Of a stretch of DNA of 48,578 bases, positions 2,541-18,468 are shown one piece after another. Each line of letters starts with the position of its first letter. Position 1 is the first letter of the stretch. Under the pieces are notes generated by a model. That model saw only the letters and a list, made by a program, of their open reading frames with translations. It was not told the DNA's origin and made no database searches. Position numbers and translations under genes: made by a program. Source of the DNA: Acidobacteria bacterium AH-259-O06 (GTDB lineage Bacteria > Acidobacteriota > UBA6911 > RPQK01 > JADFOI01); assembly GCA_027717865.1 (NCBI GenBank), contig JALLOM010000001.1:1-48578 (forward strand), in the 5' to 3' direction.

Positions 2541-2590
2541 GCCTAAAAGGTGCCGGATCTGGAGGAAGGTTGCAAGAAGAAAATTTTTGG

Positions 2591-2663: not shown

Positions 2664-2672
2664 AAACTCGTG

Positions 2673-3743: not shown

Positions 3744-5566
3744 GCCACCACCTGATCGGTGATAAATCTGGCGTCGATGGGGATTCCTTTATAGTGAAGG
3801 ACTTTTCGGATCTTTCCTTGATCGTTTTCTACCTCAAGCTTGATCAGATCACCGATTTGCCCATCCCGGTTTTGTTCCACGACGTAGGCACACTTGCAGC
3901 GACTGACAAACTCTTTCACGTCTTCGGCAAGGGGCAGCGCTCGAATTCTCAGGTAGTTGATCGCAATTCCGTACTCGTTGCGAAGCTGCTCCTGACACTC
4001 TCGCATGGCAACATCGGTTGACCCGTAAGCAATGACCCCAATTTCAGCCCCATCAGTGTATTGGATGACGGATTGAGGCACGAGTTTCTTAGCCGTTTCG
4101 CACTTTTTGGCCAGGCGGTCCATAAGCTTCTCATAGTCCTCGGGCCGCTCTGAATATTCCGCCTGCTCATCGTGCCCGCTGCCACGCGTAAAATAGGCGG
4201 CCAGGGGATGATCAGTCCCCGGCAGAGTCCGGTACGGAATGCCGTCACCGTCTACGTCTTTGTAACGGGCAAACTCACCCAAGCGCTCAAGGTCTTCGGC
4301 CGAGAGCACTTTACCTCGATCAAGAGGTTTTTCGGGATAATCGAAGGGATCCGTCATCCAGTTGTTCATGCCCAGATCCAGGTCCGAAGCCACAAAAACC
4401 GGCTGTTGTAGCCGCTCCGCCAAATCGAAGGCGTGTATGGACAATTCAAAGCACTCCGTCACGCTTGCTGGAAAAAGGACAACATGCTTGGTGTCCCCGT
4501 GAGAGAGATAGTGCAGAGAGAAGATATCTCCTTGAGAAGTTCTGGTGGGCAACCCCGTACTTGGGCCGATTCGCTGGACATTAAAGATGACAACGGGAAC
4601 TTCCGTGAAGTAGGCTAATCCGACAAATTCCGCCATCAAAGATATACCGGGTCCCGACGTAGCCGTCATGGCCCTGGCACCCGCCCATCCAGCACCAATG
4701 GCCATTCCCAACGCTGCCAGCTCATCTTCTGCTTGCACGATCGCAAACGTGGCCTTTCCTGTTTCGGGATCAATCCGATAACGTCCCATGTAATCAGCGA
4801 GCGCCTCACCCAGGCTGCTGGCCGGCGTGATCGGATACCAGGTCATCACGCTGACGCCGGCAAACATGCTTCCCAACGCGCAGGCGGAATTTCCATCTAT
4901 AATCATCTTACCCTTGGTCTTGTCCATGCGCTGAACTCGGAAAGGATCTCGCTTGGTGAGGTTGTCGCGAATATATTGTGCGCCCAGGTGAGCAGCTTGA
5001 ATGTTCAGATCAATGGCTTTCTGCTTTCCCTTGAACCACTTTGCAATCGCCAATTCGACTTCGGCCATTTCAATCCCGAGCAGTTCTGCTGCGCTTCCCA
5101 CGTAAACAATGTTAGCGATCAGCTTCTTTAACCGCGCATCTTGAACAACTTCACCTGCCAAGTTGGAAAACGGGATCGGGTAGTAAACCAGATCATCCCT
5201 GATCTTTGAAAGGTTTAACTTCTCATTGTAGATCACTACCCGGCCCGGTTCCAGATTCTCGACATCTTCTCGTGCCGTTTCAGGATTCATGGCAATTAAG
5301 ATGTCGATCTCTTTTTTGCGTGCCATGTACCCATCCTTGGAGGCTCGAATCGTGAACCATGTCGGCAACCCAGCGATATTGGATGGGAAGAGGTTTTTTC
5401 CACTGATGGGAATCCCCATTTGGAAAATGGCCCTCATCAACACATTGTTGGAAGACTGACTTCCCGACCCATTCACAGTTGCCACTTCAATGCTGAAGTC
5501 GTTTACAATCTCACCGTCCGGTTTCTTTGGTGAGAGATCTTCTTGCGGCCGAGTTTGAACACTCAC
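3707..5566 (-). CDS. korA: 2-oxoacid:ferredoxin oxidoreductase, alpha subunit
   Basis: 619-aa ORF with a typical KorA/OorA-like N-terminus (EVATVNGSGSQSSNNVL) and a pyrimidine-binding domain (ATSGPGISLMAEF). Paired with the beta subunit. Confidence 0.85.
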   Translation of the reverse strand: MSVQTRPQEDLSPKKPDGEIVNDFSIEVATVNGSGSQSSNNVLMRAIFQMGIPISGKNLFPSNIAGLPTWFTIRASKDGYMARKKEIDILIAMNPETAREDVENLEPGRVVIYNEKLNLSKIRDDLVYYPIPFSNLAGEVVQDARLKKLIANIVYVGSAAELLGIEMAEVELAIAKWFKGKQKAIDLNIQAAHLGAQYIRDNLTKRDPFRVQRMDKTKGKMIIDGNSACALGSMFAGVSVMTWYPITPASSLGEALADYMGRYRIDPETGKATFAIVQAEDELAALGMAIGAGWAGARAMTATSGPGISLMAEFVGLAYFTEVPVVIFNVQRIGPSTGLPTRTSQGDIFSLHYLSHGDTKHVVLFPASVTECFELSIHAFDLAERLQQPVFVASDLDLGMNNWMTDPFDYPEKPLDRGKVLSAEDLERLGEFARYKDVDGDGIPYRTLPGTDHPLAAYFTRGSGHDEQAEYSERPEDYEKLMDRLAKKCETAKKLVPQSVIQYTDGAEIGVIAYGSTDVAMRECQEQLRNEYGIAINYLRIRALPLAEDVKEFVSRCKCAYVVEQNRDGQIGDLIKLEVENDQGKIRKVLHYKGIPIDARFITDQVVACEKGEMESSCR

Positions 5567-5650
5567 GCTTTTTCTCCTCTTGCGCGCTCGAGTCCTCTAT
5601 TTCTGAGCATATAGATTTTAACAGAGAGCCGCGATCCTTTTCCATTGGAT

Positions 5651-5877
5651 GCCAGGAGCCAGGAGCCAGGAGTCAGAAGCCAGGAGCCAGGAGCACAGGA
5701 GCCAGGAGCACACGAGACAGAATTCAGAATGCAGAAGATTCATTAACAGGTCCAAGCCACATCAGAGCTGAGAAGCTCAAAAGCTCAATAGCTCGAAAGC
5801 TCAATAGCATGAAACCTGGAACCTTCAACCTTCAACTTTCAACCATTCTGGCTCCTGACTCCTGGCTCCTGGCTCCT
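5651..5877. repeat. Mosaic repeat locus: (GCCAGGA)n left arm, (AGCTCAAN)4, (AACCTTC)3, (TGGCTCC)4 right arm
   Basis: Left arm 5651-5736 has about 12 units that decay into CAGAA-type units. An 8-bp-period AGCTCA block is at 5774-5805. ACCTTCA units are at 5821-5841. The right arm at 5849-5876 is complementary to the left arm. Confidence 0.9.
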
Positions 5878-5883
5878 TGACCG

Positions 5884-7443
5884 CTAGTTCACCTTCTCGG
5901 AGATCGACTTGGCCTGGGTGAACAAAAGTAGATAGTCACGACCCCCAGCTTTTGAGTCGGTACCACTCATGTTGAAACCACCGAAAGGATGCACTCCCAC
6001 GAGAGCACCCGTGCATTTGCGATTGATGTACAAATTTCCCACGTGGAATTCTCTTTTGGCTTTTTCGATCTTGGATTTGTTTTGAGTGTACACAGATCCG
6101 GTCAACCCATATTCAGTCTGGTTGGCAATCTCTATTGCCTCATCGTAGTCGCGTGCCCTGATGACCGCCAAAACCGGCCCAAAGACCTCCTCCTGAGCGA
6201 TTGACGCTTTGGGATCTACATCTGAGATGACGGTTGGGCGGACGAAGTATCCTTCAGAACTCCCTGCTTTTCCACCCATCAGCAACTGTCCTTCCGTCCG
6301 TCCGATTTCGATATAACGCAGAATAGAGTCTTGTGCCTTCTGATTGACAACGGCACCAAAATTCACCTCAGGACGCTCCACGTCGCCCTCCTGGATCATG
6401 GTGCACGTTTTCTGCTGAAGCTTCTGCAAGAACTCATCACAAACGGAATCCACAACAATGGCGCGCGAGCAAGCCGAGCATTTCTGGCCCTGATAGCCGA
6501 AGGCCGAAACCACGACAGCCGCGGCAGCCTCATCCAGATTTGATTCATCATCGACCACAATGGCATCTTTCCCACCCATCTCGGCGATGACCCTTTTGAT
6601 CCACATCTGACCCGGCTGGTGCTTGGCTGCCAGTTCGTTGATTCGCAACCCTACTTGCTTGGAGCCGGTGAAGGCAATAAAACGGGTTCTGGGATGTTCC
6701 ACCAGAGCGTCGCCAATTTCTTCTCCACTGCCGGTCAAGAAATTCACCACACCGGGTGGAAATCCCACCTCTTCGACGATCTGCATCAACTGCGCTGCGA
6801 TTGTCGGCGAATCACTGGAAGGCTTCACGATCACAGTGTTTCCGCTAACCAGTGCTGCAAAGGTCATTCCCGAGAGAATGGCCAGAGGGAAATTCCAAGG
6901 TGAAATAATGACACCCACTCCTAAGGGAATATATTCAAGGGCGTTGTCCTCCGACTCGAGTTTGACCAGCGGCTGGGGACCTGCCAGCCGAAGCATCTCC
7001 CCAGAATAAAACTCACAGAAATCGATGGTCTCCGCCACGTCGGCATCCGCTTCCACCCAAGACTTTCCAACCTCCACCACCATCCATGCCGCCAGCTCGA
7101 GCCGGCGCTCTTTCATAATCTGAGAGACCCGCATCACGTATTCGACCCGTTTTGGGGCCGGGACCTGGCTCCAATGTTGAAAGGCTTCTCCTGCAGCCGA
7201 GATGGCCCGCTCAACGAATTCGCGAGTTCCCTTGGGGAAGACCCCCACGACCTCTCCTTTGCGCGAGGGATTTAAGGACTGGAATTGGCTCTCACACCGG
7301 ACTGGTTTTCCTCCGATGATGATGTTGTATTCCCTTCCCAGTTGGCTTCGCACCTTGGCGATGGCGTTTGACATTGCCTGGCGATTCTCCAAGTCTGAAA
7401 AGTCAGTCAAAGGCTGGTTTTTGAATTCACCTAGATTCATCAT
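5884..7443 (-). CDS. pruA: L-glutamate gamma-semialdehyde (1-pyrroline-5-carboxylate) dehydrogenase, aldehyde dehydrogenase family
   Basis: 519-aa ORF. ALDH catalytic motifs EMGGKD and GQKCSACSR. Size and N-terminus match RocA/PruA-type P5C dehydrogenases. Confidence 0.8.
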   Translation of the reverse strand: MMNLGEFKNQPLTDFSDLENRQAMSNAIAKVRSQLGREYNIIIGGKPVRCESQFQSLNPSRKGEVVGVFPKGTREFVERAISAAGEAFQHWSQVPAPKRVEYVMRVSQIMKERRLELAAWMVVEVGKSWVEADADVAETIDFCEFYSGEMLRLAGPQPLVKLESEDNALEYIPLGVGVIISPWNFPLAILSGMTFAALVSGNTVIVKPSSDSPTIAAQLMQIVEEVGFPPGVVNFLTGSGEEIGDALVEHPRTRFIAFTGSKQVGLRINELAAKHQPGQMWIKRVIAEMGGKDAIVVDDESNLDEAAAAVVVSAFGYQGQKCSACSRAIVVDSVCDEFLQKLQQKTCTMIQEGDVERPEVNFGAVVNQKAQDSILRYIEIGRTEGQLLMGGKAGSSEGYFVRPTVISDVDPKASIAQEEVFGPVLAVIRARDYDEAIEIANQTEYGLTGSVYTQNKSKIEKAKREFHVGNLYINRKCTGALVGVHPFGGFNMSGTDSKAGGRDYLLLFTQAKSISEKVN

Positions 7444-7493
7444 TCGTTCTCCGTCGTTTCAATCTTGACGAAGCTCTTGAGCTATGAGCTAGG

Positions 7494-7591
7494 GTAGGGG
7501 CGAGCCGGTGGCTCGCCCGAACAGTTCTCCCTAGATGATAAGCTTATCATCTAGGGAGAACTGTTCGGGCGAGCCACCGGCTCCCCCCTAC
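7494..7591. repeat. REPIN-like 98-bp palindrome: two inverted GTAG-headed REP-like units
   Basis: GTAGGGGCGAGCCGGTGGCTCGCCCGAACAGTTCTCCCTAGATGATAAG and its reverse complement are centred on AAGCTT (one mismatch). Each arm holds its own 9-bp hairpin GGGCGAGCC/GGCTCGCCC. Flanked by TGAGCTA units (7471-7493) and CCTGGCT heptamers (7592-7616). Confidence 0.9.
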
Positions 7592-8918
7592 CCTGGCCCC
7601 TGGCTCCTGGCTCCTGTAAGTCGGGAATCCGCCGGATCACGTCCATAAAGGAGGAAACCGAGAAAACCGCATTTCCAATACCGGGCTTTCCATACCCGGG
7701 TGGCGCATCAAGTTCATACTTTTCATGTGTCTCTCTCCAGGCACGGAGAAGACGAACGTGATACTCGAGAGGAGCCCCTTCTGGATTGAGTTTCCCTAGA
7801 ATACTCAGAGGTTCCGGGCACCACGTTGTGAAGCGAGGAGTAATGCCCTGAGACATGAAAAAGTCCAATCCTTCAGAGGTGGAAGCGACGGCCTCATCTA
7901 CGGTTTCAAAACCGCAGGGCCGAGCCATTTCGATTCCGGCCACGAAATTAGGAATAACACAAGAAGGACCAAGGACTTCCGCGGCATCCAGAATGCGGCG
8001 AATCCACTCGTCACGACCGATGCAACGGTTCTTCCCCGCGCAGATAATTTCAAAGAGCCGCCGGTCCCAGACTTCATAGTTTGGATGGTAGATCTGCACA
8101 CCCACATCCCTGAATCGACACACTTCTTCCCTAGGCAAGGCCTGGACCACCACCTTTGCTATCCACCGACCCGGGAATCGCTTCTCAATCGCTTCCGGGT
8201 ACTGAACATAAAAATCAATCTCACGCATTCCGTTGAGTTGGGAGGTAATGCTTCCTCCTGTCACGGTGTAAGCCTGGCTCTCGGAATCAGCATCGTTGAC
8301 GACTTCCAGGGCTTCCAGGATTTCCTCAACCGTCTTGATGCCAGTGTAAGACCGCCCAGTCTTCTTCTGTTGACGATAGTTCTCATTGATATCGCAGAAT
8401 TGGCACTCTTGTTGATGACCGAAGTACTGGCAAATTCTGAAGACGGTCAAATAGAGTAGATATCCCCACTCGATAGTTGGTGCAATATCCATGATCGGTT
8501 TCCCACTGGCCAGAGTTCGTTGATAATATTCCGGAGTTTTCTCAAACTGGATCCCTGAGAGCTCTTCCTTTTCCAATGTGAGGACCAAATCTGCTTGATC
8601 GGAAATATCGACCCGATAAGGAGAACGCGGATTCAATCGGACAGAAACGATGGTGCGACGAAAATTTCTCGGCCCACCGACTAGGCAGATCTCCTCGGGC
8701 GCCCGCAGGTTCTCCTGCCTCTGCATGTGAGCAATGGGGACCAAATCAAAAGAAAAGATAAAGTACGCTTTGGGCTTGAAGCCGGAAGCTACGCGCAGCG
8801 CATCCTCTGAAAAGGAGATCCCCGTTCGAAGTAGATCTTCCTTAAAGATTGCCTCCGGAGGCAAATCCGAATACTTCTCTATCAACGCGTCAACGAGCTG
8901 TAATCTCTGTACCATCAA
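7551..8918 (-). CDS. Hypothetical protein, radical-SAM-like TIM-barrel with a non-canonical Cys triad; the C-terminal ~23 aa are encoded by repeat DNA
   Basis: 455-aa ORF. Cys cluster CQYFGHQQECQFC (CX8CX2C instead of CX3CX2C), followed by TGGS and NYEVWD..LF..ICAGK...NFVAGIE segments reminiscent of BioB/HydE-type radical SAM cores. The stop codon TAG sits inside the 7494-7591 palindrome. Confidence 0.45.
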   Translation of the reverse strand: MMVQRLQLVDALIEKYSDLPPEAIFKEDLLRTGISFSEDALRVASGFKPKAYFIFSFDLVPIAHMQRQENLRAPEEICLVGGPRNFRRTIVSVRLNPRSPYRVDISDQADLVLTLEKEELSGIQFEKTPEYYQRTLASGKPIMDIAPTIEWGYLLYLTVFRICQYFGHQQECQFCDINENYRQQKKTGRSYTGIKTVEEILEALEVVNDADSESQAYTVTGGSITSQLNGMREIDFYVQYPEAIEKRFPGRWIAKVVVQALPREEVCRFRDVGVQIYHPNYEVWDRRLFEIICAGKNRCIGRDEWIRRILDAAEVLGPSCVIPNFVAGIEMARPCGFETVDEAVASTSEGLDFFMSQGITPRFTTWCPEPLSILGKLNPEGAPLEYHVRLLRAWRETHEKYELDAPPGYGKPGIGNAVFSVSSFMDVIRRIPDLQEPGARGQGRGEPVARPNSSP

Positions 8919-8938
8919 CGCTACAGCCTAACACATTG

Positions 8939-9018
8939 GGTCAGGTAGGGGCCGTGTCTTTAAAATTTAAATTTTGAGGTCAAAATTCAAATTTTAAAGA
9001 CACGGCCCCTACCTGACC
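8939..9018. repeat. 80-bp near-perfect palindrome with GGTCAGGTAGGGG termini
   Basis: 39-nt arms GGTCAGGTAGGGGCCGTGTCTTTAAAATTTAAATTTTGA with a 2-nt centre and one mismatch. Lies between the divergent starts of the 7551-8918 ORF and the TPR gene. Confidence 0.92.
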
Positions 9019-9102
9019 TCGGGCCTCAACTTGACTCCTCTACATCCCATCTTATAATACTTCGTCTTCTGGCTGATCCTAATACAATCACGGGAGGACT
9101 TT

Positions 9103-9762
9103 ATGCCGGCCAAAAGAAGCAAGAAGCAAAAGAGCAAACAGACTAAGAAGAAACCAGCTAAGAAGAAACCGAGTAGCAAAAAACAAGTAAGGAAGAGACC
9201 AACCGGGAAAACACGAGCTGGGAAAAAACAAGTTGGGAAAAAACGAGCTCAAAAACGGGGCAGATCTGAGAAGAAAAGATCTGCCGAGGAGGTTTACCGG
9301 CTTTACAAAGAGGCACTGGCCCTTTTACACCAGAAGAAATATAAGAAAGCCCGCAAACAACTCACTCAGGTGGTGAAAAAGTTTTCTCATGAAATCGAGG
9401 TGGTCGCCCGAGCCAAATCCTTTCTCAGAGTCTGCGACAGAAACCTTCAAGCGAAAGAAGAACCTCCACGGACAGCTGAAGAGATTTTCCATCAAGGCGT
9501 CCTTTACCATAATGCTGGGCAATACGAAAAAGCGCTGCATTGTTATTCTCGTGCTTTGAAGCTTTCGAAAAAGAAGAACGACCACATTTACTACGCCTTG
9601 TCGGCAACTGAGCTTTCCACTGGCAATATCGATAATGCGCTCAAATATCTCAAGAAGGCCATTGAAATCAAAGAGGAGAATCGGTTCTTTGCTCACAACG
9701 ACCCAGATTTCGAGCTCCTCGCTACAAACCAGAAATTCCGGGAACTGATCCATCCAGAGTAA
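9103..9762 (+). CDS. TPR-repeat protein with a histone-H1-like Lys-rich N-terminal domain
   Basis: 219-aa ORF with an SD (GGGAGGA) upstream. The first ~60 aa are about 50% K/R (KKQKSKQTKKKPAKKKPSSKK...). The C-terminal part has TPR-like helices (YHNAGQYEKALHCYSRALKL; GNIDNALKYLKKAIEI). Confidence 0.7.
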   Translation: MPAKRSKKQKSKQTKKKPAKKKPSSKKQVRKRPTGKTRAGKKQVGKKRAQKRGRSEKKRSAEEVYRLYKEALALLHQKKYKKARKQLTQVVKKFSHEIEVVARAKSFLRVCDRNLQAKEEPPRTAEEIFHQGVLYHNAGQYEKALHCYSRALKLSKKKNDHIYYALSATELSTGNIDNALKYLKKAIEIKEENRFFAHNDPDFELLATNQKFRELIHPE

Positions 9763-9861
9763 GCGAGAACAGAATGCATCCTGGGGGGAAGATGAAGAGC
9801 AATGCCTCAGTCTGCGGGGAGATGGGTGATGGCTGGGAGGCCGTTTGTATAGGAGGCAAGG

Positions 9862-11313
9862 ATGGTGGCTAACAAGAATCAGTCGCTGCATCGAAACAAA
9901 CGATATGCCCTCATTCTAGCTGCGGGTCAAAGTATCCGGTTCAAGTCTCTCAAGCCCAAAGTACTGCACCCCCTTTGCGGCAAATCTCTAATCTGCCACG
10001 TCTTGGACAAGCTCAAAGGTTTGAACATCGAGCGAACCTTCGTGGTTATCGGTCCTGATGGTGATGAGGTGAAAAGTGCACTTGGGGGATACCCTGTGAA
10101 TTTTGTTTCCCAAAGCGAGCAATTGGGGACAGGTCACGCGGTAATGGCGGCCGCTCCTCAACTGAGAGATCTCAGGGGAAGCCTTCTCGTGCTCTATGCG
10201 GACACGCCGCTCATTCGAACACAGACGCTGCGGCGACTTCTGAAAACTCGAGAAAAGCATAAGGCCGATCAGGTCTTGTTAACCACTGATTATGAGAATC
10301 CCTCTGGGTACGGCAGAATCATTCGCAATGAAAAGGGCGAGGCGATGGACATCGTTGAAGAAAAGGATGCCAGCGCTGAACAAAAAGCCATTCGCGAAGT
10401 CAACGCCGGCCTTAACTGCTTTAGGATTCCCTCGCTGCTGGAGGCTCTATCACAATTGTCCCCAGCAAACGCTGCCCAAGAGTACTACCTAACAGACATA
10501 CTTCGCATCCTGCGAAACGGCGGAAAGAAAGTCGTAACCATCTCGACTGACCTCCCCAATGAAGCACGGGGAGTTAACAACCGAGAGGAACTCTCACTGG
10601 TTGAGATCAATTTGAGGGCTCAGATTGCTCGAAGATGGATGCTTGAAGGAGTAACCATTCTGAATCCTTCCTCCGTTTACATCGACGAATCTGTCGAACT
10701 CTCTCCAGATGCGATCATTTATCCCGGTGTTCTTCTGGAAGGAAAAACCAAAGTCGGCGCCGGCTGCGTGATCCACAGCTTCTGCCACCTGAAAGACACC
10801 GTTCTCGACCAAGAAGTCATGGTTGACCAGTGCTCTGTGATACGCAACAGCAGCATTGGAAAAAACACCCGGGTAGGCCCTTTTGCTCATTTGCGAGATA
10901 ACACCGTTATCGGGCCTGAAGCCCGCATCGGAAGCTTCGTGGAGGTCAAGAAGTCGCGAATTGGAAAAAGGACCACAGCTGCCCACCTGAGCTACCTGGG
11001 AGACGCTGAAATTGGAAGTCAAGTCAATGTGGGCGCCGGCACGATCACCTGCAACTATGACGGCATCCGGAAGCATAAAACCGTAATCGAGGACCAGGTT
11101 TTTATTGGCAGCGACAGCCAGTTGGTCGCTCCGGTCACGCTCCACCAGGGCTCCTATGTGGCGGCCGGTTCCTCAATTACGGAAGATGTACCTGAGTACG
11201 CCCTAGGAATCGCCCGTGCCAGACAGATCAACAAGGAAGGATGGACGAGACGAAGGGCTGGAGAACAAAAGAAAAAAGAAAAAAGAAAAAAGAAAGAACA
11301 GCAAAAGAGCTGA
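9862..11313 (+). CDS. glmU: Bifunctional UDP-N-acetylglucosamine pyrophosphorylase / glucosamine-1-phosphate N-acetyltransferase
   Basis: 483-aa ORF. N-terminal nucleotidyltransferase motif LILAAGQSIRFKS, GTGHAV, and C-terminal left-handed beta-helix hexapeptide repeats. Extra Lys-rich tail QKKKEKRKKKEQQKS. Confidence 0.9.
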   Translation: MVANKNQSLHRNKRYALILAAGQSIRFKSLKPKVLHPLCGKSLICHVLDKLKGLNIERTFVVIGPDGDEVKSALGGYPVNFVSQSEQLGTGHAVMAAAPQLRDLRGSLLVLYADTPLIRTQTLRRLLKTREKHKADQVLLTTDYENPSGYGRIIRNEKGEAMDIVEEKDASAEQKAIREVNAGLNCFRIPSLLEALSQLSPANAAQEYYLTDILRILRNGGKKVVTISTDLPNEARGVNNREELSLVEINLRAQIARRWMLEGVTILNPSSVYIDESVELSPDAIIYPGVLLEGKTKVGAGCVIHSFCHLKDTVLDQEVMVDQCSVIRNSSIGKNTRVGPFAHLRDNTVIGPEARIGSFVEVKKSRIGKRTTAAHLSYLGDAEIGSQVNVGAGTITCNYDGIRKHKTVIEDQVFIGSDSQLVAPVTLHQGSYVAAGSSITEDVPEYALGIARARQINKEGWTRRRAGEQKKKEKRKKKEQQKS

Positions 11314-11564
11314 CCACAGACCAGGAGACAGAAGACAGGAGTCAGGAGACAGAAGTCAGGAGTCAGGAGTCAGAATCCAGAATTCAGAATAACTAACTTG
11401 AATTTCATGAGCTGTCCCAACCGTTCCCAGCGTCGAATGGGATGATGAGGAAAAAACTTAACTTAACTTCATGTTTTGACCAAACAATCTTCTCCTGTGC
11501 GTTCATATTCTGATCCTGTCTCCTGACTCCTGACTCCTGTCTTCTGTCTCCTGGTCTGTGGTCA
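11311..11564. repeat. Inverted heptamer arms (38 bp perfect, about 60-80 bp imperfect) enclosing a ~115-nt core; the termini include both convergent stop codons
   Basis: Left arm TGACCACAGACCAGGAGACAGAAGACAGGAGTCAGGAG... at 11311-11390. The reverse complement of 11507-11564 begins with the identical 38 nt. TGA of glmU (11311-11313) and TGA of carB (11564-11562) are the first 3 nt of each arm. Confidence 0.92.
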
Positions 11565-14500
11565 GTGCTGTGCGGCTGGTTGCCTCTCAAGCGCATGGTA
11601 TTCCTGCAAACTTTTGACGCTGATCTCTTCTCGCTGCAGCGCGCGGATTGCATTGACAGCGGCAGCAGCGGCTGAAAGGGTGGTTATACAGGGTGTACCG
11701 TACTGCGTACAAGCCCTACGAATGGCTTTTTCATCAAAAAAGGACTCCCGTCCTAAAGGAGTATTGACCACCAAATCGATTCTTTTGCTTTTAATGAGAT
11801 CAACGACATTTGGACGACCTTCGTTGACCTTGTAAACCGTTTCTGTTTCAAGGTCTGATTCACGCAACACTTTGGCCGTTCCGCGGGTAGCCACAATCTG
11901 AAAGCCAAGTTCCTGGAAATCTCTGGTGATATTGGAAATGAAACGTTTGTCCCTCTGGTTCACACTGATAAAAACGACGCCTCCTTGCGGGAGATGCACG
12001 CCGGCGCTGATCTGAGCTTTGGCATAAGCGTACCCGAAGCTTTCTGAAGCGCCCATCACCTCGCCGGTCGACTTCATTTCGGGCCCCAGGATGGTGTCGA
12101 CTCCTGGGAACTTATTGAAAGGAAAGACAGGAGTTTTGATAAAACAATAGCGAACTTGCAGATCCTGGGTAAGACTCAGCTCTTGGAGCTTTTGACCAAT
12201 CATCAGCTGGGCGGCCACCTTCGCCAAGGGCACCCCAGTGGCTTTGCTTACAAATGGAACAGTTCGACTGGCCCGTGGATTAACCTCCAAAACGTACACT
12301 TTATCGCCAACCACGGCAAACTGGACGTTCATCAGCCCGACTACACCCAGTGTCTGCCCCAGTTTGCGCGTATATTCTCGCATGGTTTCCAGGTGTTCTT
12401 CCTGGATCACAATGGGAGGCAAGACTGAAGTACTATCGCCGGAGTGGATACCTGCCTCTTCAATGTGCTCCATGATGCCGCCAATCACGACCCTGCTTCC
12501 ATCAGCCAGTGCATCAACATCGTATTCGCGGGCATCCTCGAGAAACTTGTCGATCAGAACAGGATGTTCCGGAGACACGTCCACGGCGGAACTGACGTAC
12601 TTGTCGAGTGACTTTTCATCAAAAATGATGGCCATCGCCCGGCCCCCCAACACATAGGATGGTCTCACCAAAACGGGATAACCGATTTTTTGGCCGATTT
12701 CCCTGGCTTCCTCCACCGACATGGCGGTGCCGTTGTCAGGCTGGGGGATGTTGAGGTCACGCAGCAGCTGCCCGAATCTCTTGCGATCCTCCGCCAGGTC
12801 AATCGACTCGGGAGAAGTTCCAATGATGGGCACGCCGGCGTCAAAAAGCTTTAAGGCCAGCTTGAGAGGAGTTTGTCCACCAAACTGGACGATAACCCCA
12901 TCCGGTTTTTCTTTCTCTACAATGGCCATCACATCCTCAAAACTCAGTGGCTCAAAGTAGAGTCGATCCGAGGTGTCATAGTCTGTGGACACCGTCTCCG
13001 GATTGCAGTTGACCATAATGGTCTCAAATCCCGCCTCTTTCAAAGCGAAGGCGGCGTGGCAACAGCAATAGTCAAACTCAATTCCCTGGCCGATGCGATT
13101 AGGCCCGCTTCCCAGAATAATGATCTTCCGGCGCTCGGAAGGTTCTGTCTCATCCTCTCGTTCATAAGTGGAGTAAAGGTAAGGCGTATAGGACTCAAAT
13201 TCTGCTGCACAGGTGTCAACACATTTAAAGACCGGCAGGATGCCGTGCCCTTTCCGATAATTCCACAAATCCAACTCAGTCAGTGAGGGACCGAGAATCT
13301 GGGCTAGGCGAAGGTCCGAAAAACCCTCTCGCTTTGCCTGGCGTACCAACTCGGGGTCGATGGTCTCCAGATCCTCTTTGCCCAAGCTCTGGCCAAACCT
13401 GATGATCTGGAAAATCTGGTTGAGGAACCAGCGATCGATCTTCGTCAACTCGTGAATCTCATCGAGACTGTAACCCTCCAAAAAGGCCAAGCGAATGTAA
13501 GCTAATCGCTGAGGTGTGGGCTGAATTAGATTTTCCCGAATCCGCTCTTTCGAAACTTTTTCACTGGCCAAAGTCTTTCCCGTTTCCTGAGAGCGCAAAC
13601 TTTTGAGCAGGGCTTCACGGAAAGTTCGGCCGATGGCCATCACTTCCCCTACCGATTTCATCTGAGTACCCAGAATGGTGCTGGCTTCCGGAAATTTCTC
13701 GAAATTCCACTTGGGCATTTTCACCACCACGTAATCCAGAGTAGGCTCGAAACAGGCAGGGGTCTTCAGAGTGATGTCGTTAGGAATCTCGTCCAATGTA
13801 TAACCGACGGCCAATTTGGCAGCGATCTTGGCAATAGGAAAACCAGTGGCTTTTGAGGCAAGTGCCGAGCTTCTGCTCACTCGCGGATTCATCTCGATAA
13901 CGACCATCCTTCCCGTTTCTGGATGAACGGCGAACTGAATGTTCGCTCCACCCGTCTCCACGCCCACTTTGCGGATGATGGCAATGGCGGCATCACGCAT
14001 AAGCTGGTACTCTTTGTCAGACAGAGTTTGGGCGGGGGCGACGGTAATGGAATCGCCCGTGTGCACTCCCATGGCGTCAAAATTCTCAATGGAGCAGATG
14101 ATCACGACATTGTCATTCAGGTCGCGCATGACTTCGAGCTCAAATTCCTTCCAGCCGATGATCGATTCCTCGACCAGGATTTCGTGAATGGGAGAGAGCT
14201 GAAGTCCGCGGCTGGCAATTTCTTCAAACTCTTCGCTGTTGAAAGCGATTCCACCTCCAGTTCCCCCAAGAGTGTAGGAGGGACGAATCACGGCAGGAAG
14301 TCCAATCTTGTCGACAATTCCGGCAGCCTCTTTAAGGCTGTTGGCAAATCCAGATCGAGGTACTTCCAGGCTGACCTCTTCAATAGCAGTCCTGAAAAGG
14401 CGACGATCCTCGGCCACCCTGATTGCATTCAATTTAGCGCCGATCATTTCGACGCCAAATTGATCCAGAATCCCCTCTTCACACAGTTCGACCGAAACAT

Positions 14501-14789
14501 TCAGTCCAGTCTGGCCACCCACAGTGGGTAGCAAAGCATCCGGACGCTCGCGCTTGATAATTTCCCCCACATACTCGCTGGTGAGAGGCTCAATGTAGGT
14601 CCGTGTGGCAAACTCCGGATCTGTCATGATGGTGGCCGGATTGGAGTTGACCAGCACTACCTGAAAACCGTCGCTCAGGAGAGCTTTGCAGGCTTGAGTT
14701 CCTGAGTAATCAAACTCGCAGGCTTGGCCGATGATAATCGGGCCCGATCCCACGATGAGGATTTTGCTGATATCGGTTCTTTTAGGCAT
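11562..14789 (-). CDS. carB: Carbamoyl-phosphate synthase large subunit
   Basis: 1075-aa ORF with a duplicated ATP-grasp architecture. N-terminus [30 protein letters not shown] is characteristic of CarB. Confidence 0.97.
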
Positions 14790-14796
14790 CGATTTT

Positions 14797-14918
14797 TAAG
14801 CTATTAAGCTTTTGAGCTAGAGTAGGGGCGAGCCGGTGGCTCGCCCGAACAGTTCTCGCTAGATGATTAGTTCGGGCGAGCCACCGGCTCGCCCCTATCC
14901 TGGCTCCTGACTCCTGAC
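14797..14918. repeat. Second, truncated copy of the GTAG-REPIN module with the same flanks
   Basis: TAAGCTA/TTGAGCTA units are followed by GTAGGGGCGAGCCGGTGGCTCGCCCGAACAGTTCTCGCTAGATGATTAG (from 14822). Next come a shortened inverted arm TTCGGGCGAGCCACCGGCTCGCCCCTAT (to 14898) and then TCCTGGC/TCCTGAC heptamers. Confidence 0.9.
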
Positions 14919-14923
14919 CCCCA

Positions 14924-16021
14924 TCACGCATCAGCGCCTTCTTTCATTAGGCGAATGAAATCGTCAAACAAATAGAACGAATCGTGTGGTCCCGGAGAGG
15001 CTTCGGGATGGTACTGAACCGAAAAAACGGGAAGATAGCGATGCCGAAACCCTTCAAGCGTCTGGTCGTTCAGGTTCATGTGAGTGATTTGAATCTCCGT
15101 GTTCTTGAGTGAGTCAGGATCAACTGCAAAACCGTGGTTGTGGGTGGTAATCTCCACTTTACTATTGATCAGGTTTTTCACCGGTTGGTTACCTCCCCGG
15201 TGTCCAAATTTCAGTTTGTAGGTTTTCCCTCCCAAGGCCAACGCCAGCAATTGGTGTCCCAAACAGATTCCGAAGATCGGTTTTTTGCCTATCAATTTTC
15301 TGAAATTCTCCACGATGTACTGCAGCGGTTCGGGGTCCCCGGGGCCGTTGGAAAGGAAAATGCCATCCGGATCCAATGCCAGTACGTCCTCAGCACTGGT
15401 CACGGCCGGAACAACAGTGAGATCACACCCTCGGCCAGCCAAGCAGCGCAATATATTCGTCTTAATGCCAAAATCATAGGCAACGACACGGAACCGAGGA
15501 TTTTCGGCAGGCCAAGTGTAGGTCTCAGTCACAGTGACGGAGCGTACATAGTCGCTTCCTTCCATAGGAGGATGCTCGTGTACTTTCCGTCCTAACGACT
15601 GCAGATCGAAATCATCCCTGGAGATAATACCGCGCATGGCTCCCCCCTCACGAATGTGGCGAACCAGGGCACGCGTATCGATCTCGGCAATACCCGGAAT
15701 GGAATTTTCTCTGAGGTAGTCATCCAAGGTTTTCTCCCCTCTCCAGTTGCTAAAAATCGGGCTGCACTGGCGCACGACAAAGCCTTCCACAAAGGGCTTT
15801 CGCGACTCGTCGTCCTCTGAATTGATCCCATAGTTCCCAATCTCCGGCTGAGTCATCACCACAACTTGGCCGGCATAGGAAGGGTCGGTCAAAACCTCCT
15901 GGTAGCCTGTCATGGAAGTGTTGAAGACCACTTCCCCCAGGCACTCCCCTTCCACCCCAAACCCAAGGCCTTCAAACAACGTTCCATCTTCCAGATAAAG
16001 AAGTGCTTTTTGCGTTTTCAT
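14924..16021 (-). CDS. carA: Carbamoyl-phosphate synthase small (glutamine amidotransferase) subunit
   Basis: 365-aa ORF with the GATase active-site region GICLGHQLL and the QYHPEA motif. Adjacent to carB. Confidence 0.95.
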
Positions 16022-16026
16022 ATGAC

Positions 16027-16214
16027 TAGAATCTAGAATCCAGAATCCAGAATCCAGAAGTCAGAATTCAGAAGCCAGAATGCTGACCACCTGACCGCCT
16101 GACCTAATGTTGTCTCTTGCTCGTTGGTCAGCCGGTCAGCCTTTCGCTTGTCCGCAGACTTATGAGTTTTCCATCTCGCCTTCTGAATTCTGGATTCTGG
16201 ATTCTGGATTCTGT
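16027..16214. repeat. Nested inverted arrays: outer (CCAGAAT)8 / (ATTCTGG)4-5, inner (CTGACC)3 / (GGTCAG)2
   Basis: Left CTAGAAT/CCAGAAT/TCAGAAT units at 16027-16082, then GCTGACCACCTGACCGCCTGACC. Complementary TTGGTCAGCCGGTCAGCC is at about 16125-16142. The right arm CTTCTGAATTCTGGATTCTGGATTCTGGATTCTG is at about 16181-16214. Confidence 0.9.
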
Positions 16215-16219
16215 TCCCC

Positions 16220-16813
16220 TCAGTGAATCAATCCTAGCTTTGACAAAGGCCAGTAACGAAAGATGGCTTCACCGAAGATGTTCTCTTTTGGAACACAGCC
16301 CCAGTTTCGACTATCGTTACTGGAGCTTCGGTGGTCTCCCAGCACAAAGAAATAATTGGGAGGCACAACCTCGGGGGGATAAGATTCATAGTCGAAATAT
16401 TCCGGTGGAATGTAAGTCTCCGCTAACCTTTCCCCATTGATATAAACAACTCCCGACCGGATCTCAACCGTTTCACCCGGAAGACCAATCACTCGCTTGA
16501 TGAAGGACTTTGTCAGGTCCCTCGGAGGCCAGAAAACAACAATGTCTCCTCGTTCGATGTTTGAAAAATGATAGACGAATTTGTTTACAAAGATTCGGTC
16601 CTGTGCTCGGAGTTTAGGCTCCATGCTGGTGCCTTCCACTTTCACCGGCTGCACAATGAAAATCACTATCAAAACCGCGGTCAGCGCCGCAAAAAAGATG
16701 TCTCTCACCCAACCTTGAAGCTCTCGAAAGAGAGACAAAGGATCCTCTGTAGTCCCTTTTTTTTCGCTGGACTCAACTGTCCGACCAGGAAATAAATCCC
16801 GCTGCACCGACAT
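16220..16813 (-). CDS. lepB: Signal peptidase I
   Basis: 197-aa ORF with an N-terminal TM helix, the catalytic Ser box GTSMEP, the KRVIGLPGE box and the GDHRSSSNDSR box. Confidence 0.9.
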   Translation of the reverse strand: MSVQRDLFPGRTVESSEKKGTTEDPLSLFRELQGWVRDIFFAALTAVLIVIFIVQPVKVEGTSMEPKLRAQDRIFVNKFVYHFSNIERGDIVVFWPPRDLTKSFIKRVIGLPGETVEIRSGVVYINGERLAETYIPPEYFDYESYPPEVVPPNYFFVLGDHRSSSNDSRNWGCVPKENIFGEAIFRYWPLSKLGLIH

Positions 16814-16840
16814 CGTGCGCTACTCCTGTCCTCTCTAAAT

Positions 16841-16994
16841 CGGAGTTAACTCCGAAACGGATAACAGTCTTTCCTGCTTTCGTGCTGTCGTGCTTTCGTG
16901 CTGTCGGTCGCCTGAGGAGGACGCCACGACAGCACGAAGGCACGAAGGCACGAAAACACGAAAGCACGAAGTCTGTCACGCATTTCGGAGTTAC
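16841..16994. repeat. CACGAAG-family inverted heptamer arms, plus the CGGAGTTAACTCCG palindrome
   Basis: Left arm CTGCTTTCGTGCTGTCGTGCTTTCGTGCTGTCG (about 16875-16907). Right arm CGACAGCACGAAGGCACGAAGGCACGAAAACACGAAAGCACGAAG (about 16927-16971). A 14-bp perfect palindrome is at 16841-16854, and TCGGAGTTA recurs at about 16985. Confidence 0.9.
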
Positions 16995-17216
16995 GTGTGC
17001 AACCAAGCATTGTAGATAACATATTTGGAAAACCGAAAACAACCGTTTTGTCCGCTTTTATCCGCTGTTCGTACTACCTTCGTCTTGTTACACTCCCGGG
17101 GTTTATGACTCTTGCAGCCCGAAAAAAGTTGCAATAGGCAGAAAAAGTTTGATTCATCTTTTGCAGAAATTTCCCTTGTGGACGGTCGGACTGTTGAGCC
17201 AGAATCAGTGAGGACT

Positions 17217-17240
17217 GATTACTGAAACCATTCAGTAATC
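17217..17240 (+). promoter_or_regulatory. Perfect 10-bp stem / 4-nt loop hairpin in the pdaD leader
   Basis: GATTACTGAA-ACCA-TTCAGTAATC ends 4 nt before the GGAGGAG Shine-Dalgarno and 17 nt before the TTG start. Confidence 0.5.
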
Positions 17241-17257
17241 ATGCGGAGGAGTGAGCA

Positions 17258-17815
17258 TTGGCACTGTTCATTGCAAAGGAAGTCTTTTTGACGAAGGGTG
17301 TAGGCAAGCACCAGGAAAAGCTAACCAGTTTCGAGATGGCTTTGCAAAATGCCGGTATCGCTGCTTTTAACATCGTTCGGGTTTCCAGTATCTTTCCGCC
17401 TCACTGCAAGTTAATCTCGAAAAAACAAGGATTGAAAAAGCTCAAACCGGGTCAAATCGTCTTTTGTGTCATGAGCGACGCGGCCACCGACGAGCCAAAC
17501 CGTCTCATTGCGGCAGCTGTCGGTATCGCCATGCCCAAGGATGCCAACCAGTATGGCTACCTCAGTGAACATCATAGTTACGGACAAACAGAAAGGGTTG
17601 CTGGAGATTACTCTGAAGATATCGCCGCCGAGATGCTGGCGATAACCTTGGGAGTCGATTTTGACCCTTCTCAAAGTTGGGACGAGAAAAGAGAGCTCTG
17701 GCGAATCTCAGGTCAAATTGTCAGAACCAGAAACATCACCCAATCGGCGATAGGTGACAAAGACAGATTGTGGTCCACGGTTGTAGCCTCAGCCGTCTTT
17801 GTCCCCGGAGAATAG
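17258..17815 (+). CDS. pdaD: Pyruvoyl-dependent arginine decarboxylase
   Basis: 185-aa ORF with a TTG start 6 nt after GGAGGAG. Self-cleavage site region NIVRVSSIFPP matches the PdaD family signature (N.IR.SSI.PP). Confidence 0.85.
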   Translation: MALFIAKEVFLTKGVGKHQEKLTSFEMALQNAGIAAFNIVRVSSIFPPHCKLISKKQGLKKLKPGQIVFCVMSDAATDEPNRLIAAAVGIAMPKDANQYGYLSEHHSYGQTERVAGDYSEDIAAEMLAITLGVDFDPSQSWDEKRELWRISGQIVRTRNITQSAIGDKDRLWSTVVASAVFVPGE

Positions 17816-17821
17816 CCACCC

Positions 17822-18379
17822 TCAAACCTCGATAATTTCCTTTTCCTTTTGATCTGCCAACACGTCAATCTCTTTGATGTGCTCGTCGGTAATTTTCTGC
17901 ACTTCACCTAGAGCATGGTATTCCATGTCTTCGGAAATTTCTTTCTCTCTGAGTAACCTTTTGAGCTTCTCGTTGGCATCTCGACGAATGTTGCGGATGG
18001 CGGTACGGTGATCCTCGGCAACTTTTCCCACCTGTCTCGCCAAAGATTCTCGCCTTTCTTGAGTCAGTGCAGGAATCGGAATACGAATGATCCGACCGTC
18101 ACTAGAAGGATTCAGGCCAAGATCGGAAGCCAGGATGGCCTTTTCAATGTTATGAATCTGGGAAGTATCCCAGGGCTGAACGGTGATTAGGCTGGGTTCC
18201 GGAACATGCAGGGTAGCAAGCTGGTTGATGGGAGTTCGGCTACCATAATAGTCCACACTAACGTGGTCCAGAAGATGAACTGAGGCTCGTCCTGTGCGAA
18301 TTCCCGCCAGCTCCCTGGTTAGGTCTTCCAAGGTTTTTTGCATTCGCTGCTTTGTCTCTGAAAGGATCTCTTTGATCAT
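17822..18379 (-). CDS. frr: Ribosome recycling factor
   Basis: MIKEILSETKQRMQKTLEDLTRELAGIRTGRAS is a canonical Frr N-terminus. The ORF-track start at 18436 (TTG) lies inside the 18388-18452 palindrome and is rejected. Confidence 0.92.
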   Translation of the reverse strand: MIKEILSETKQRMQKTLEDLTRELAGIRTGRASVHLLDHVSVDYYGSRTPINQLATLHVPEPSLITVQPWDTSQIHNIEKAILASDLGLNPSSDGRIIRIPIPALTQERRESLARQVGKVAEDHRTAIRNIRRDANEKLKRLLREKEISEDMEYHALGEVQKITDEHIKEIDVLADQKEKEIIEV

Positions 18380-18387
18380 AGGTAGGG

Positions 18388-18452
18388 GGTCAGGTATGGG
18401 ATTTTGGCATTTCGCCACTTTTGGGCGAAATGCCAAAATCCCATACCTGACC
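18388..18452. repeat. 65-bp perfect hairpin palindrome with GGTCAGGTATGGG termini
   Basis: 29-nt arms GGTCAGGTATGGGATTTTGGCATTTCGCC with a 7-nt loop. It shares its terminal 13 nt (one substitution) with the 8939-9018 element but has a different core. Lies between the pyrH stop and the frr start. Confidence 0.92.
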
Positions 18453-18468
18453 CCGAATCCCCCCGGGG

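Follow-up and report, generated by a model that had tools for sequence, protein, structure and literature searches.

A heptamer-armed hairpin element between the convergent glmU and carB genes of an acidobacterium

Among the long simple sequence repeats of prokaryotes, those built of heptanucleotide units are reported to be the most frequent (MacGregor 2015, PMC4679880, citing Mrazek et al. 2007), and neither a function nor an origin has been established for them. The closest published case to the element described here comes from Xanthomonas, where inverted pairs of GGGAATC heptamers lie by stop codons (Rehm 2015, PMC4692102). According to that report, Xanthomonas campestris and X. axonopodis carry 70-75 convergent inverted pairs per genome: the arrays are intergenic and lie 0-50 bp from stop codons or overlap them, are rare between divergent genes, are mostly transcribed and have lengths that are not conserved between related species; no regulatory effect was found for them (PMC4692102). 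The cyanobacterial STRR heptamers and the TAACTGA direct repeats, as described by MacGregor, are intergenic and scattered over phyla in a way that suggests transfer or convergence, and some overlap stops; for the most part they form lone direct arrays a short way ahead of start codons, and only one inverted case was reported in the Beggiatoaceae genome (PMC4679880).

Here we describe an element located between the convergent genes glmU and carB of Acidobacteria bacterium AH-259-O06, in a stretch of 48,578 nucleotides (contig JALLOM010000001.1) that is referred to as the window. Tandem intergenic heptamers, inverted pairing and the sequence GAATC are common to this element and to the Xanthomonas repeats; like those repeats it has at least three near-identical 7-nt units, forms a convergent inverted pair and lies close to stops. 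It differs in its units – CAGGAGN, CAGAAGN and CAGAATN, which are not G-rich, have no G3 or G4 tract and cannot form G-quadruplexes – and in its acidobacterial host, the pairing of both stops within the stem, a terminal inverted repeat with 12 nt of unique sequence and a 118-nt core present in multiple copies. Multi-copy cores and a cross-phylum census belong to the present elements, and neither was noticed in the accessible text of Rehm 2015. A relative of the STRR and TAACTGA repeats also occurs in the window, as an (ACAACTG)n array at 22141-22208, upstream of rplM.

The REP, BIME and REPIN sequences of Proteobacteria are abundant extragenic palindromes of 3'-UTRs that often lie between convergent genes and form inverted pairs, and REP RNA hairpins block 3' exonucleases. 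Within ~15 nt of a stop, REPs are said (by Liang, Rudd and Deutscher in 2015) to stall terminating ribosomes. REPs are described as unique palindromes of 20-40 nt that carry a GTAG or CGTC tag and are mobilised by RAYTs (PMC3733652). The glmU-carB element, by contrast, has no GTAG tag and its arms are tandem heptamers, a form that sets it apart from REPs. The window does contain REP-like GTAG palindromes, at 7476-7620, 8939-9018 and 18386-18454; they make up a family distinct from the heptamer element.

MITEs, among them the neisserial Correia elements, ERIC and Nezha, are short, non-coding, multi-copy and intergenic, have terminal inverted repeats, form hairpins in transcripts and differ between strains. 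The present element resembles them in its terminal inverted repeats (12 nt plus arrays) and in having copies at unrelated loci (2 known). However, its terminal repeats are microsatellites of variable rather than fixed length, and its cores are seemingly exchangeable between array pairs. Nor was a target-site duplication found: the flanks, AAAGAG before CTGACC and TGCTGT after GGTCAG, hold no direct repeat, and none was seen at the second locus (L112, below). No cognate transposase was found among the window's ORFs of at least 150 aa, which are partly annotated.

Anatomy of the element and its copies

The region 11310-11565 is a 256-bp hairpin-forming repeat element that takes up the whole spacer between glmU and carB, and the TGA stops of both genes lie within its stem. 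Its features and those of its neighbours are:

9862..11313, + strand: glmU, 483 aa (ORF list and translation; homologues named GlmU, expected Pfam domains)
11262-11295, + strand: Lys-rich tail of glmU, encoded by (AGAAAAA)n
11310..11321, + strand: left terminal inverted repeat CTGACCACAGAC, unique non-heptamer sequence with the glmU stop inside (TGACCACAGA conserved in the sister genome, L001)
11311-11313, + strand: glmU stop TGA, preceded by AGC and paired in the stem
11322..11391, + strand: left heptamer array, 10 units (Tandem Repeats Finder and unit parse)
11392..11509, no strand: 118-nt core, a dispersed repeat family with copies at L112 and L001
11510..11553, - strand: right heptamer array, 6 units after a terminal CACAGAC (Tandem Repeats Finder and unit parse)
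11554..11565, - strand: right terminal inverted repeat GTCTGTGGTCAG, with the carB stop inside (all 12 nt conserved in L001)
11562-11564, - strand: carB stop TGA, after CAC (TCA on the + strand)
11562..14789, - strand: carB, 1075 aa, convergent with glmU (CPSase domains in the L001 orthologue)

Four layers make up the element: the terminal inverted repeat of 12 nt, CAG[A/G]A[G/T]N heptamer arrays, the 118-nt core and the inverted arrays. The units of the left array are CAGGAGA, CAGAAGA, CAGGAGT, CAGGAGA, CAGAAGT, CAGGAGT, CAGGAGT, CAGAATC, CAGAATT and CAGAATA; those of the right array, read on the minus strand, are CAGGAGA, CAGAAGA, CAGGAGT, CAGGAGT, CAGGAGA and CAGGATC. Tandem Repeats Finder reports the arrays with a period of 7 (11322-11373/11371-11390 and 11510-11553), together with (AACTT)3 at 11455-11469, within the core.

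The original prediction was of a 38-bp perfect inverted repeat starting at the two TGA codons, with arms that continue as heptamers in shifted register. The identity is exact – 11311-11348 on the plus strand is the reverse complement of 11527-11564, base 39 being the first to differ – and an inverted-repeat search recovered arms of 52 nt (11310-11361 and 11514-11565; 94% complementary, 152 nt apart) with additional registers offset by 7, 14 and 21 nt, in agreement with the shifted heptamers. What needs qualification is the nature of the repeat: the arrays begin 8 nt past each TGA, and of the sequence that covers both stops only the outer 12 nt (CTGACCACAGAC) are unique, the remainder of the 38 nt being heptamer array. 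The 17-mer TGACCACAGACCAGGAG was found twice when up to 3 mismatches were allowed, compared to 0.05 expected, and the match is not due to chance. A sequencing or assembly artefact was considered and rejected: the arms confirm one another within each of two independent assemblies, and like arrays are present in isolate genomes and in one multi-megabase contig.

The sister genome, Acidobacteria bacterium AH-259-G07 (L001), is 98-99% identical to the window in the flanking genes. It retains the termini TGACCACAGA...TCTGTGGTCA and both stops, and both of its arms consist of CAGAATC-type units: TGACCACAGA (the first 11 nt of the terminal repeat plus the preceding C) leads directly into six such units at the position of the window's left array. 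The locus is occupied in both strains, with differing arms, and distant relatives have no heptamer arrays there; a third member of the GlmU cluster (P0122, L123) gives no third allele of the element, its contig stopping inside the glmU Lys-tail. On a different AH-259-G07 contig (L112, 2430-2547) there is a copy of the core that is 96.6% identical to that of the window, in inverted orientation, with CAGAATN arrays on its flanks, between convergent ABC ATPase and hisIE genes. Identity of the window's core to this paralogue exceeds that to the orthologous L001 copy, which is 83%. The 118-nt core is a dispersed repeat, of which only two loci are known because the genome is fragmentary.

Exchange of whole elements is evident at a further locus (5651), where both cores and units differ between the two strains. 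Other elements have cores of their own: two copies of a different core lie 5.5 kb apart in L120, and two cores of 76 nt that are related to each other occur in a Chlamydiae MAG (L089). The 22-mer GACCAAACAATCTTCTCCTGTG from the window's core had 0 matches in the metagenome scan, which yielded no further alleles.

Elsewhere in the window, units of the same type occur at 5651-5877, 16028-16213, 27486-27698 and 106-183, and CTGACC-type motifs are found inside other elements of this genome, for example at 16083-16104 and in the L081 core. The sequence CCACAGACC is present in 3 copies, compared to 0.31 expected. The third, at 22132, directly precedes the (ACAACTG)n array, as had been proposed, but the site is not a gene end: it belongs to the region ahead of the divergent genes rplM and pilM. 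Recurrence of TGACCACAG at other gene ends, in turn, was not borne out, there being no additional copy across ~77 kb of readable sequence of this species. CTGACCAC was examined as a recurrent element terminus and set aside: 3 copies were found against 1.19 expected, a number reached in 13 of 100 shuffles and not significant.

Paired heptamer arrays across phyla

The glmU-carB element is a single member of a class of paired heptanucleotide repeats that is widespread and has been little studied; a literature search returned no publication on CAGAATC arrays. More than 118 stretches, from many phyla, contain (CAGAATC)3. Among the sampled genomes all 46 adjacent pairs of CAGAATC-type arrays are organized as 5'-(CAGAATC)n...(GATTCTG)n-3' (F..R) and none as R..F, and the window's element has the same polarity, the purine-rich arm coming first on either strand. 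A scan of a metagenome collection produced 4 short R..F pairs: the polarity is strong, not absolute. A viral collection scanned for the F..R and R..F patterns contained neither and is uninformative. Most co-occurring units have CAG/CTG in common. In short relatives of the class, A/T-rich runs, where present, lie inside the stem beside the loop, not outside it.

The genes that flank the pairs are convergent in 12 cases, co-directional in 18 and divergent in 3, so that divergent contexts are depleted (3 of 33, compared to ~8 expected). The outer edge of a pair lies a median of 7 nt from the facing stop, and 25 of the 41 edges lie within 8 nt of it; examples of contact with a stop are TGA-GAATCCAG (L081), CTAGAATT (L112) and TAGAATAGAATTCAG (L120), and in copies other than that at glmU-carB the stop can belong to a first unit that is degenerate (TAGAATT and TGAGAATC). 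Unpaired arrays have no stop in any frame, which made their relation to gene ends too noisy to read from crude ORF calls. A relative whose GlmU shares only 69% identity has array elements in the same two spacers (after glmU, and between the POR and aldehyde dehydrogenase genes).

General, exact concerted evolution of the arms was rejected. Unit variants are mirrored beyond chance in 0 of 43 pairs, and the arms are thus not generally held in exact register; for the symmetric change that separates the arms of the window from those of L001, exchange of the entire interior is the better explanation.

Stop codons and predicted RNA folding

A further part of the original prediction was that the structure itself provides the stop codon of both genes, native stops having perhaps been replaced. 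Relatives that lack the element speak against this. Of three (L121, L124 and L125), carB ends in TGA in all and both genes do so in two: L121 and L125, which have no heptamers and spacers of 123 nt and 9 nt, respectively, carry TGA on both genes, and in L124 the carB TGA occupies the exactly matching position, with a tail of 10 aa after EYH as in the window. Since TGA is found in element-free relatives, for carB once at the same position, the stops look native; those of both genes probably predate the element, and the carB stop, at least, is by this comparison positionally native. The protein ends are variable, GlmU Lys-rich tails differing in length in all relatives and CarB tails ranging from 6 to 11 aa. 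Since each gene ends in C-TGA and the element starts directly behind it, the inverted repeat formally extends across the two stops. Extension of the repeat beyond the array by C-TGA-C requires a coincidence, which we roughly estimate at a few percent to 10%, both genes using TGA.

Folding of the two transcripts gives predicted hairpins of -143 kcal/mol (z = -11.4) and -138 kcal/mol (z = -10.9), and whichever transcript is considered both stops fall inside the base of this very stable predicted structure. The proposal of a bidirectional terminator stands in so far as the convergent position fits a shared 3'-end structure with the stops in a stable hairpin, and a shared role as a 3'-end RNA hairpin is plausible. 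As in bidirectional intrinsic terminators, one hairpin is shared by two convergent genes, and on the carB side a U-rich run follows the stem (CUCUUUUGCUGUUCUUUCUUUUUU, the antisense of the codons of the glmU Lys-rich tail). Its form is nevertheless not that of a canonical intrinsic terminator: the stem is longer than 50 bp, the loop of 152 nt is far from the short loop of 3-8 nt, and no U-tract lies 3' of the stem on the glmU side (UCAGUGCUGUGCGG). All that a terminator scan picked up was a marginal hairpin of 6 bp on the minus strand, inside the terminal motif. Across the 18 co-directional contexts the sense strand folds better in 10 and the antisense strand in 8, a result that gives no signal of selection at the RNA level.

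Explanations for the element

We favor, with a probability of about 0.6, the explanation that 11310-11565 is a copy of a multi-copy, heptamer-armed hairpin cassette that fills the spacer between pre-existing stops and acts as a 3'-terminal RNA hairpin. The cassette consists of a short terminal inverted repeat and two inverted CAG[A/G]A[G/T]N arrays around a 118-nt core that is repeated elsewhere, and it fills the entire spacer of convergent genes in which TGA stops were probably already present. On this view its arms change rapidly, with units being added or lost and the whole interior being exchanged for that of a paralogous copy, while termini and position persist. On either transcript the long 3'-terminal hairpin would tag or shield the 3' end and curb read-through from one gene into the other, and terminating ribosomes, having to melt the base of the stem, may be slowed by it. 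Anatomy, multi-copy nature, polarity, stop proximity, strain turnover and TGA in element-free relatives are direct observations; from them we infer, for an uncultured organism, the function at the RNA level and the manner in which copies spread. Several results sit uneasily with such a function: the missing U-tract on the glmU side and the 152-nt loop, the better folding of the sense strand in only 10 of 18 co-directional contexts, the absence of exact register between the arms (0 of 43 pairs), the coincidence needed for C-TGA-C, and the 4 R..F pairs of the metagenome collection. Rehm et al., too, found no regulatory effect of the Xanthomonas repeats.

A weaker, though serious, contender is a selfish MITE-like element whose terminal inverted repeats are microsatellites and which has no function for the host. 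It would spread with the help of a trans-acting transposase, or as the ubiquitous arrays recombine with one another, and would be found by stops only since insertions are tolerated there and other spacer DNA is deleted. Multi-copy cores at unrelated loci, the replacement of whole elements between strains 98-99% identical, and a fixed polarity, which is expected of terminal inverted repeats read from their ends, are all consistent with such an element, as are the lack of strand bias in RNA folding and of covariation in the core; moreover, an ancestral spacer of 9 nt, as in L125, would place any insertion against both stops. Yet neither the glmU-carB copy nor L112 has a target-site duplication, no transposase gene was seen among the window's partly annotated ORFs of at least 150 aa, and the two strains show no empty site of the family. 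The depletion between divergent genes also counts against it, and occupation of the same intergenic positions in the relative with 69% GlmU identity suggests retention. We regard as unlikely the earlier view that an inverted duplication of one gene end, stop included, replaced the stop and 3' flank of the other gene, so that the element supplies at least one stop. In favor of such an event are C-TGA-C on both sides of the inverted repeat, the unconstrained terminal residues of both proteins, the CTGACC-type motifs within other elements (16083-16104, the L081 core) and the stops that belong to a degenerate first unit in other copies. It is opposed by the TGA codons of element-free L121 and L125, by the identical position of the carB TGA in L124, by the lack of significant enrichment of CTGACCAC and by the want of a second TGACCACAG copy in the available sequence.

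Less probable again is an action of the DNA itself, as a cruciform or slipped structure or as protein-binding sites of 7-bp periodicity for a conserved DNA-binding or replication factor, the transcripts being irrelevant. Phyla that are very far apart have the CAGAATC unit in common, CAG/CTG is found in most of the units that co-occur with it, folding shows no asymmetry between sense and antisense, and non-B DNA structures are discussed for the Xanthomonas repeats by Rehm et al.; however, nothing links the arrays to replication or nucleoid features, and the tight association with gene 3' ends, together with the divergent depletion, points to transcription or translation. Least probable of all is that the core is a small RNA gene which the arrays merely flank. 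Its 96.6% conservation between two loci would fit, but no promoter-like site was found in it, and its consensus fold is weak (-17 kcal/mol) with no covariation and no compensatory pair. A search of Rfam gave no match at the gathering threshold, only sub-threshold plant miRNA precursors (e.g. 47 against a cut-off of 135 bits) that are attributable to the long stem, and the cores of other elements are unrelated.

A broader and rather speculative proposal is that heptamer-armed cassettes form a superfamily of 3'-end elements that spans phyla and is mobile or recombines, with CAGAATC-type microsatellite termini, exchangeable core cargo, a near-invariant polarity that reflects recognition by a conserved factor (a putative transposase or recombinase, or a component of transcription or RNA decay) and homogenisation of the arms into gene ends. 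Were this so, arm homogenisation may fix or replace stops, and the element would have a hand in how housekeeping genes end, at the protein C-terminus as well as at the 3' end. To what is known of heptanucleotide repeats the locus adds the same unit and polarity over distant phyla, hairpin cassettes with multi-copy cores, arrays within a few nt of housekeeping stops, and turnover between strains 98-99% identical while position persists. Should the elements work as hairpins at 3' ends, bacteria outside Proteobacteria would have in them a functional equivalent of REPs, and they would offer a natural system for translation termination inside a strong stem. They also bear on annotation: the elements break short-read assemblies, the contigs of two relatives ending inside or beside the glmU-carB element, and, with no stop in any of the six reading frames, they can give rise to spurious ORFs.

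Layers and stop codons of the glmU/carB element

The 256-bp element between the convergent genes glmU and carB (11310-11565) is layered as follows.

9862..11313, + strand: glmU, 483 aa, ending ...AGC TGA
11562..14789, - strand: carB, 1075 aa, ending ...CAC TGA
Outermost layer: unique 12-nt terminal inverted repeat, CTGACCACAGAC / GTCTGTGGTCAG, holding both stops
Second layer: heptamer arrays of form CAG[A/G]A[G/T]N, 10 units left and 6 right
Third layer: innermost unit CAGAATA on both sides
11392-11509: central layer, a core of 118 nt
11455-11469: (AACTT)3, within the core

As originally predicted, the 38 nt beginning at the glmU TGA are identical to those beginning at the carB TGA (base 39 is the first mismatch), and the arms, which are period-7 arrays, continue as heptamers in shifted register: a repeat search returned arms of 52 nt (11310-11361 and 11514-11565; 94% complementarity, gap of 152 nt) plus alternative pairings at shifts of multiples of 7 nt. 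Because a 17-mer of the inverted repeat, with up to 3 mismatches, was found twice against 0.05 expected, a chance origin is excluded. From either transcript one long hairpin is predicted (-143 and -138 kcal/mol, z about -11). No Rfam family and no tRNA were found in the element; an Rfam search in E-value mode gave sub-threshold plant miRNA precursor models only, matches that reflect the generic long stem.

It had been proposed that the repeat supplies the stop codons of both genes, replacing the native ones. Stops were compared in three relatives in which convergent glmU/carB synteny is kept and heptamers are absent.

Stop codons and intergenic spacers in three heptamer-free relatives (contigs)
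L121: glmU TGA; carB TGA; spacer 123 nt, unrelated sequence
L125: glmU TGA; carB TGA; spacer 9 nt (TGAcaacgcaccTCA)
L124: glmU TAG; carB TGA; spacer 139 nt

Past the conserved EYH, the CarB tail measures 10 aa both in the window and in L124, against 11 aa (L121) and 8 aa (L125) in the other two. Given these tail lengths and the relatives' stops, the carB stop is native in its position, and both genes usually end in TGA in this group. The proposal is not supported: L121 and L125 carry TGA on both genes without heptamers, and in L124, too, carB ends in TGA after a 10-aa tail. C-TGA is also common in these three relatives. The simplest reading of the sequences is that the element sits exactly between two pre-existing C-TGA stops, which is why the inverted repeat formally runs through both. 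That an inverted duplication donated a stop is unlikely and is required by no observation, although the GlmU and CarB tails are both unconstrained. No further copy of TGACCACAG was found in the window, in L001, L081 or L112 (contigs of the sister genome) or in L120 (a relative with 69% identical GlmU), and enrichment of CTGACCAC was not significant.

Across GlmU homologues of the acidobacterial group (P0001-P0040) the C-terminal tail is Lys/Arg-rich and variable in length; in the window it is encoded by an (AGAAAAA)n-like repeat (11262-11295), the antisense of which is the sole U-rich run adjoining the hairpin. In L125, a long-read metagenome contig, gene calling breaks carB into three overlapping ORFs (1988-5266), probably through frameshift errors and not because the gene is genuinely split. 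In L126, a further relative's contig, synteny is not conserved: glmU is not downstream of carB, which is followed by about 4 copies of a 21-nt tandem repeat (CAGCTTGCTTCGACCGCTTGG; 1515-1600) and then by C/T-rich degenerate repeats.

Further copies and turnover between strains

While the inverted repeat is real, it is not a device peculiar to glmU/carB: copies of its class occupy other loci, including the following in the window.

106-183: half unit, cut by the window edge
5651-5877: array - core - inverted array unit
16028-16213: array - core - inverted array unit
27486-27698: array - core - inverted array unit

A GlmU search located the sister genome, Acidobacteria bacterium AH-259-G07 (GCA_027717925.1), whose contig L001 matches window 2686-20033 at 98-99% identity. 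Its contig L112 carries the glmU/carB core (96.6% identity) in inverted orientation, flanked by CAGAATN arrays, between convergent ABC ATPase and hisIE genes; the array begins 4 nt past one stop, and its last unit, CTAGAATT, contains the other. A third element, on L081, separates an rpoD-like gene from queA, with TGA-GAATCCAG on one side. In L120 a different core family is present in 2 copies within 7.6 kb, the one directly after glmU (TAG-AATAGAATTCAGAATCC...), the other at a position orthologous to the window 5651 element. Because core copies recur at the L112 and L120 loci, cores are dispersed repeats carried between heptamer arms.

The glmU/carB locus of L001 retains TGACCACAGA...TCTGTGGTCA, both stops and the core; however, both arms consist of CAGAATC-type units, compared to CAGGAGN/CAGAAGN in the window, and the core is only 83% identical to that of the window, below the L112 paralogue. 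Arm-to-arm homogenisation is not supported as the cause of this symmetric change: in a permutation test of 43 array pairs, the order of unit variants was mirrored beyond chance in none. The simpler account is that a paralogous copy replaced the entire interior, with ordinary slippage in addition. At the 5651 locus both cores and units differ between strains, and at the 16028 locus differences are limited to unit number and single bases. Window 5651-5877 and L001 2982-3168 occupy the same intergenic site with CAGGAGC and CAGAATC units, respectively, and unrelated cores, the L001 core resembling the CTGACCNC/GGTCAGCC core of another window element (16083-16141); this comparison suggests cassette exchange between array pairs.

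Polarity, gene ends and proposed function

More than 118 stretches of species-representative genomes contain (CAGAATC)3; hosts among the matches listed include Acidobacteriota, Verrucomicrobiota, Planctomycetota, Gemmatimonas, Chlamydiae, cyanobacteria, Bacteroidota, Bacillota, one Leptospira isolate and others. Polarity is strong but not absolute: all 46 pairs of adjacent arrays from these matches and the window are ordered 5'-(CAGAATC)n...(GATTCTG)n-3', while a dedicated scan of a metagenome collection found 4 short pairs of opposite order. A purely mutational origin (slippage and fold-back) predicts both polarities, unlike the pairs observed; near-invariant polarity therefore points to defined element ends or a directional function. 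Of the listed pairs, 12 lie between convergent genes, 18 between co-directional and 3 between divergent ones, and the distance from strict array edge to facing stop has a median of 7 nt (8 nt or less for 25 of 41 listed edges).

Other period-7 arrays beside the CAGAATC arrays (L002-L119, the matched contigs) have mostly CAG/CTG-containing units (CAGAATT, CAGGAGT, CAGGAGA, CAGAAGC, CAGTGGT, CAGTTGT), suggesting, in a sample biased by the query, a cross-phylum preference for the CAGNNNN class. Where the spacer of a pair is short (Gemmatimonas, Pyrinomonadaceae), it is a small palindrome with an A-rich start and T-rich end, for example AAAGCAAAACC-GG-TTTTGCTTT (L049 3859-3876, L056 995-1012, L088 5456-5480 and others); one MAG has an identical palindromic spacer in both orientations at two loci.

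Hairpin stability on both transcripts, a 3'-end location, scarcity between divergent genes and a position that persists despite sequence turnover fit a model in which the element would form a shared 3'-terminal RNA hairpin of the glmU and carB transcripts, barring read-through or exonucleases. REP elements of enterobacteria act as such a barrier. A hairpin shared by two gene ends is plausible, and to that extent the predicted bidirectional terminator is partly right; a canonical intrinsic terminator it is not, the loop being 152 nt, the glmU side lacking a U-tract, and the U-rich run on the carB side being the antisense of glmU Lys codons. In co-directional contexts among the matches listed, array pairs fold better in sense in 10 cases and in antisense in 8. 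The loop and U-tract, this split and the null effect in Xanthomonas weigh against a simple terminator. A serious rival is a selfish, MITE-like element devoid of host function, which accounts for polarity and multi-copy cores; however, target-site duplication is absent, no transposase was identified, and a close strain offered no empty site.

The closest published description, Rehm et al. 2015 (PMC4692102), is of GGGAATC heptamer arrays in Xanthomonas, with 70-75 convergent inverted pairs per genome; these are transcribed, but a regulatory effect was not found. The element shares the defining features of that type, as described there, except G-richness, and adds a non-G4 unit common to several phyla, near-invariant polarity, multi-copy cores and a unique terminal inverted repeat embedding both stops. 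Among long simple-sequence repeats, heptanucleotides are the most abundant class (Mrazek et al. 2007, as cited in MacGregor 2015, PMC4679880). The element is neither REP/REPIN nor canonical terminator, and MITE status is not proven: it is a variant within a known, poorly understood kind. The glmU/carB locus is ordinary for its class, which is widespread and, with the present comparison, testable.

Other repeats in the window

The sequence CCACAGACC, predicted also to head the array at 22131, does precede (ACAACTG)n there (copy at 22132), yet the site is no gene end but lies in the divergent region ahead of rplM and pilM. This array (22141-22208, about 10 units, preceding the rplM-rpsI operon) is closely related to the TAACTGA direct heptamers described by MacGregor 2015 (PMC4679880), which were reported ahead of ribosomal protein genes in Beggiatoaceae, cyanobacteria and Bacteroidetes.

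The array pair at 16028-16213 occupies the entire carA-lepB spacer (6 nt to the carA start codon, 6 nt to the lepB stop), so that a Shine-Dalgarno sequence would not fit ahead of carA; nested in its interior is an octamer inverted repeat, CTGACCAC x3 / GGTCAGCC x2. An octamer version of the architecture, between divergently oriented genes and with a unit number unlike that of L001, is found nearby.

16869-16971: (CTTTCGTG)n - GC-rich hairpin - (GCACGAAG)n

At 7476-7620, 14813-14916 and 18386-18464 the window carries long inserted palindromes bearing GTAG-type tags (e.g. GGTAGGGGCGAGCCGGTGGCTCGCCCGAACAG...); they are missing or heptamer-replaced at the orthologous sites of L001, the 98-99% identical strain, and look like recently moved REP/REPIN-type palindromes. 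An 80-nt near-perfect palindrome, GGGTCAGGTAGGGGCCGTGTC...GACACGGCCCCTACCTGACC, is common to both strains (window 8939-9018, L001 6086-6165), its termini being the same as those of the 18386 insertion (GGTCAGGTA.GGG). In two related assemblies contigs end inside or just before the repeat downstream of glmU (L120 7652, L123 2249): heptamer elements seem to break short-read assemblies.
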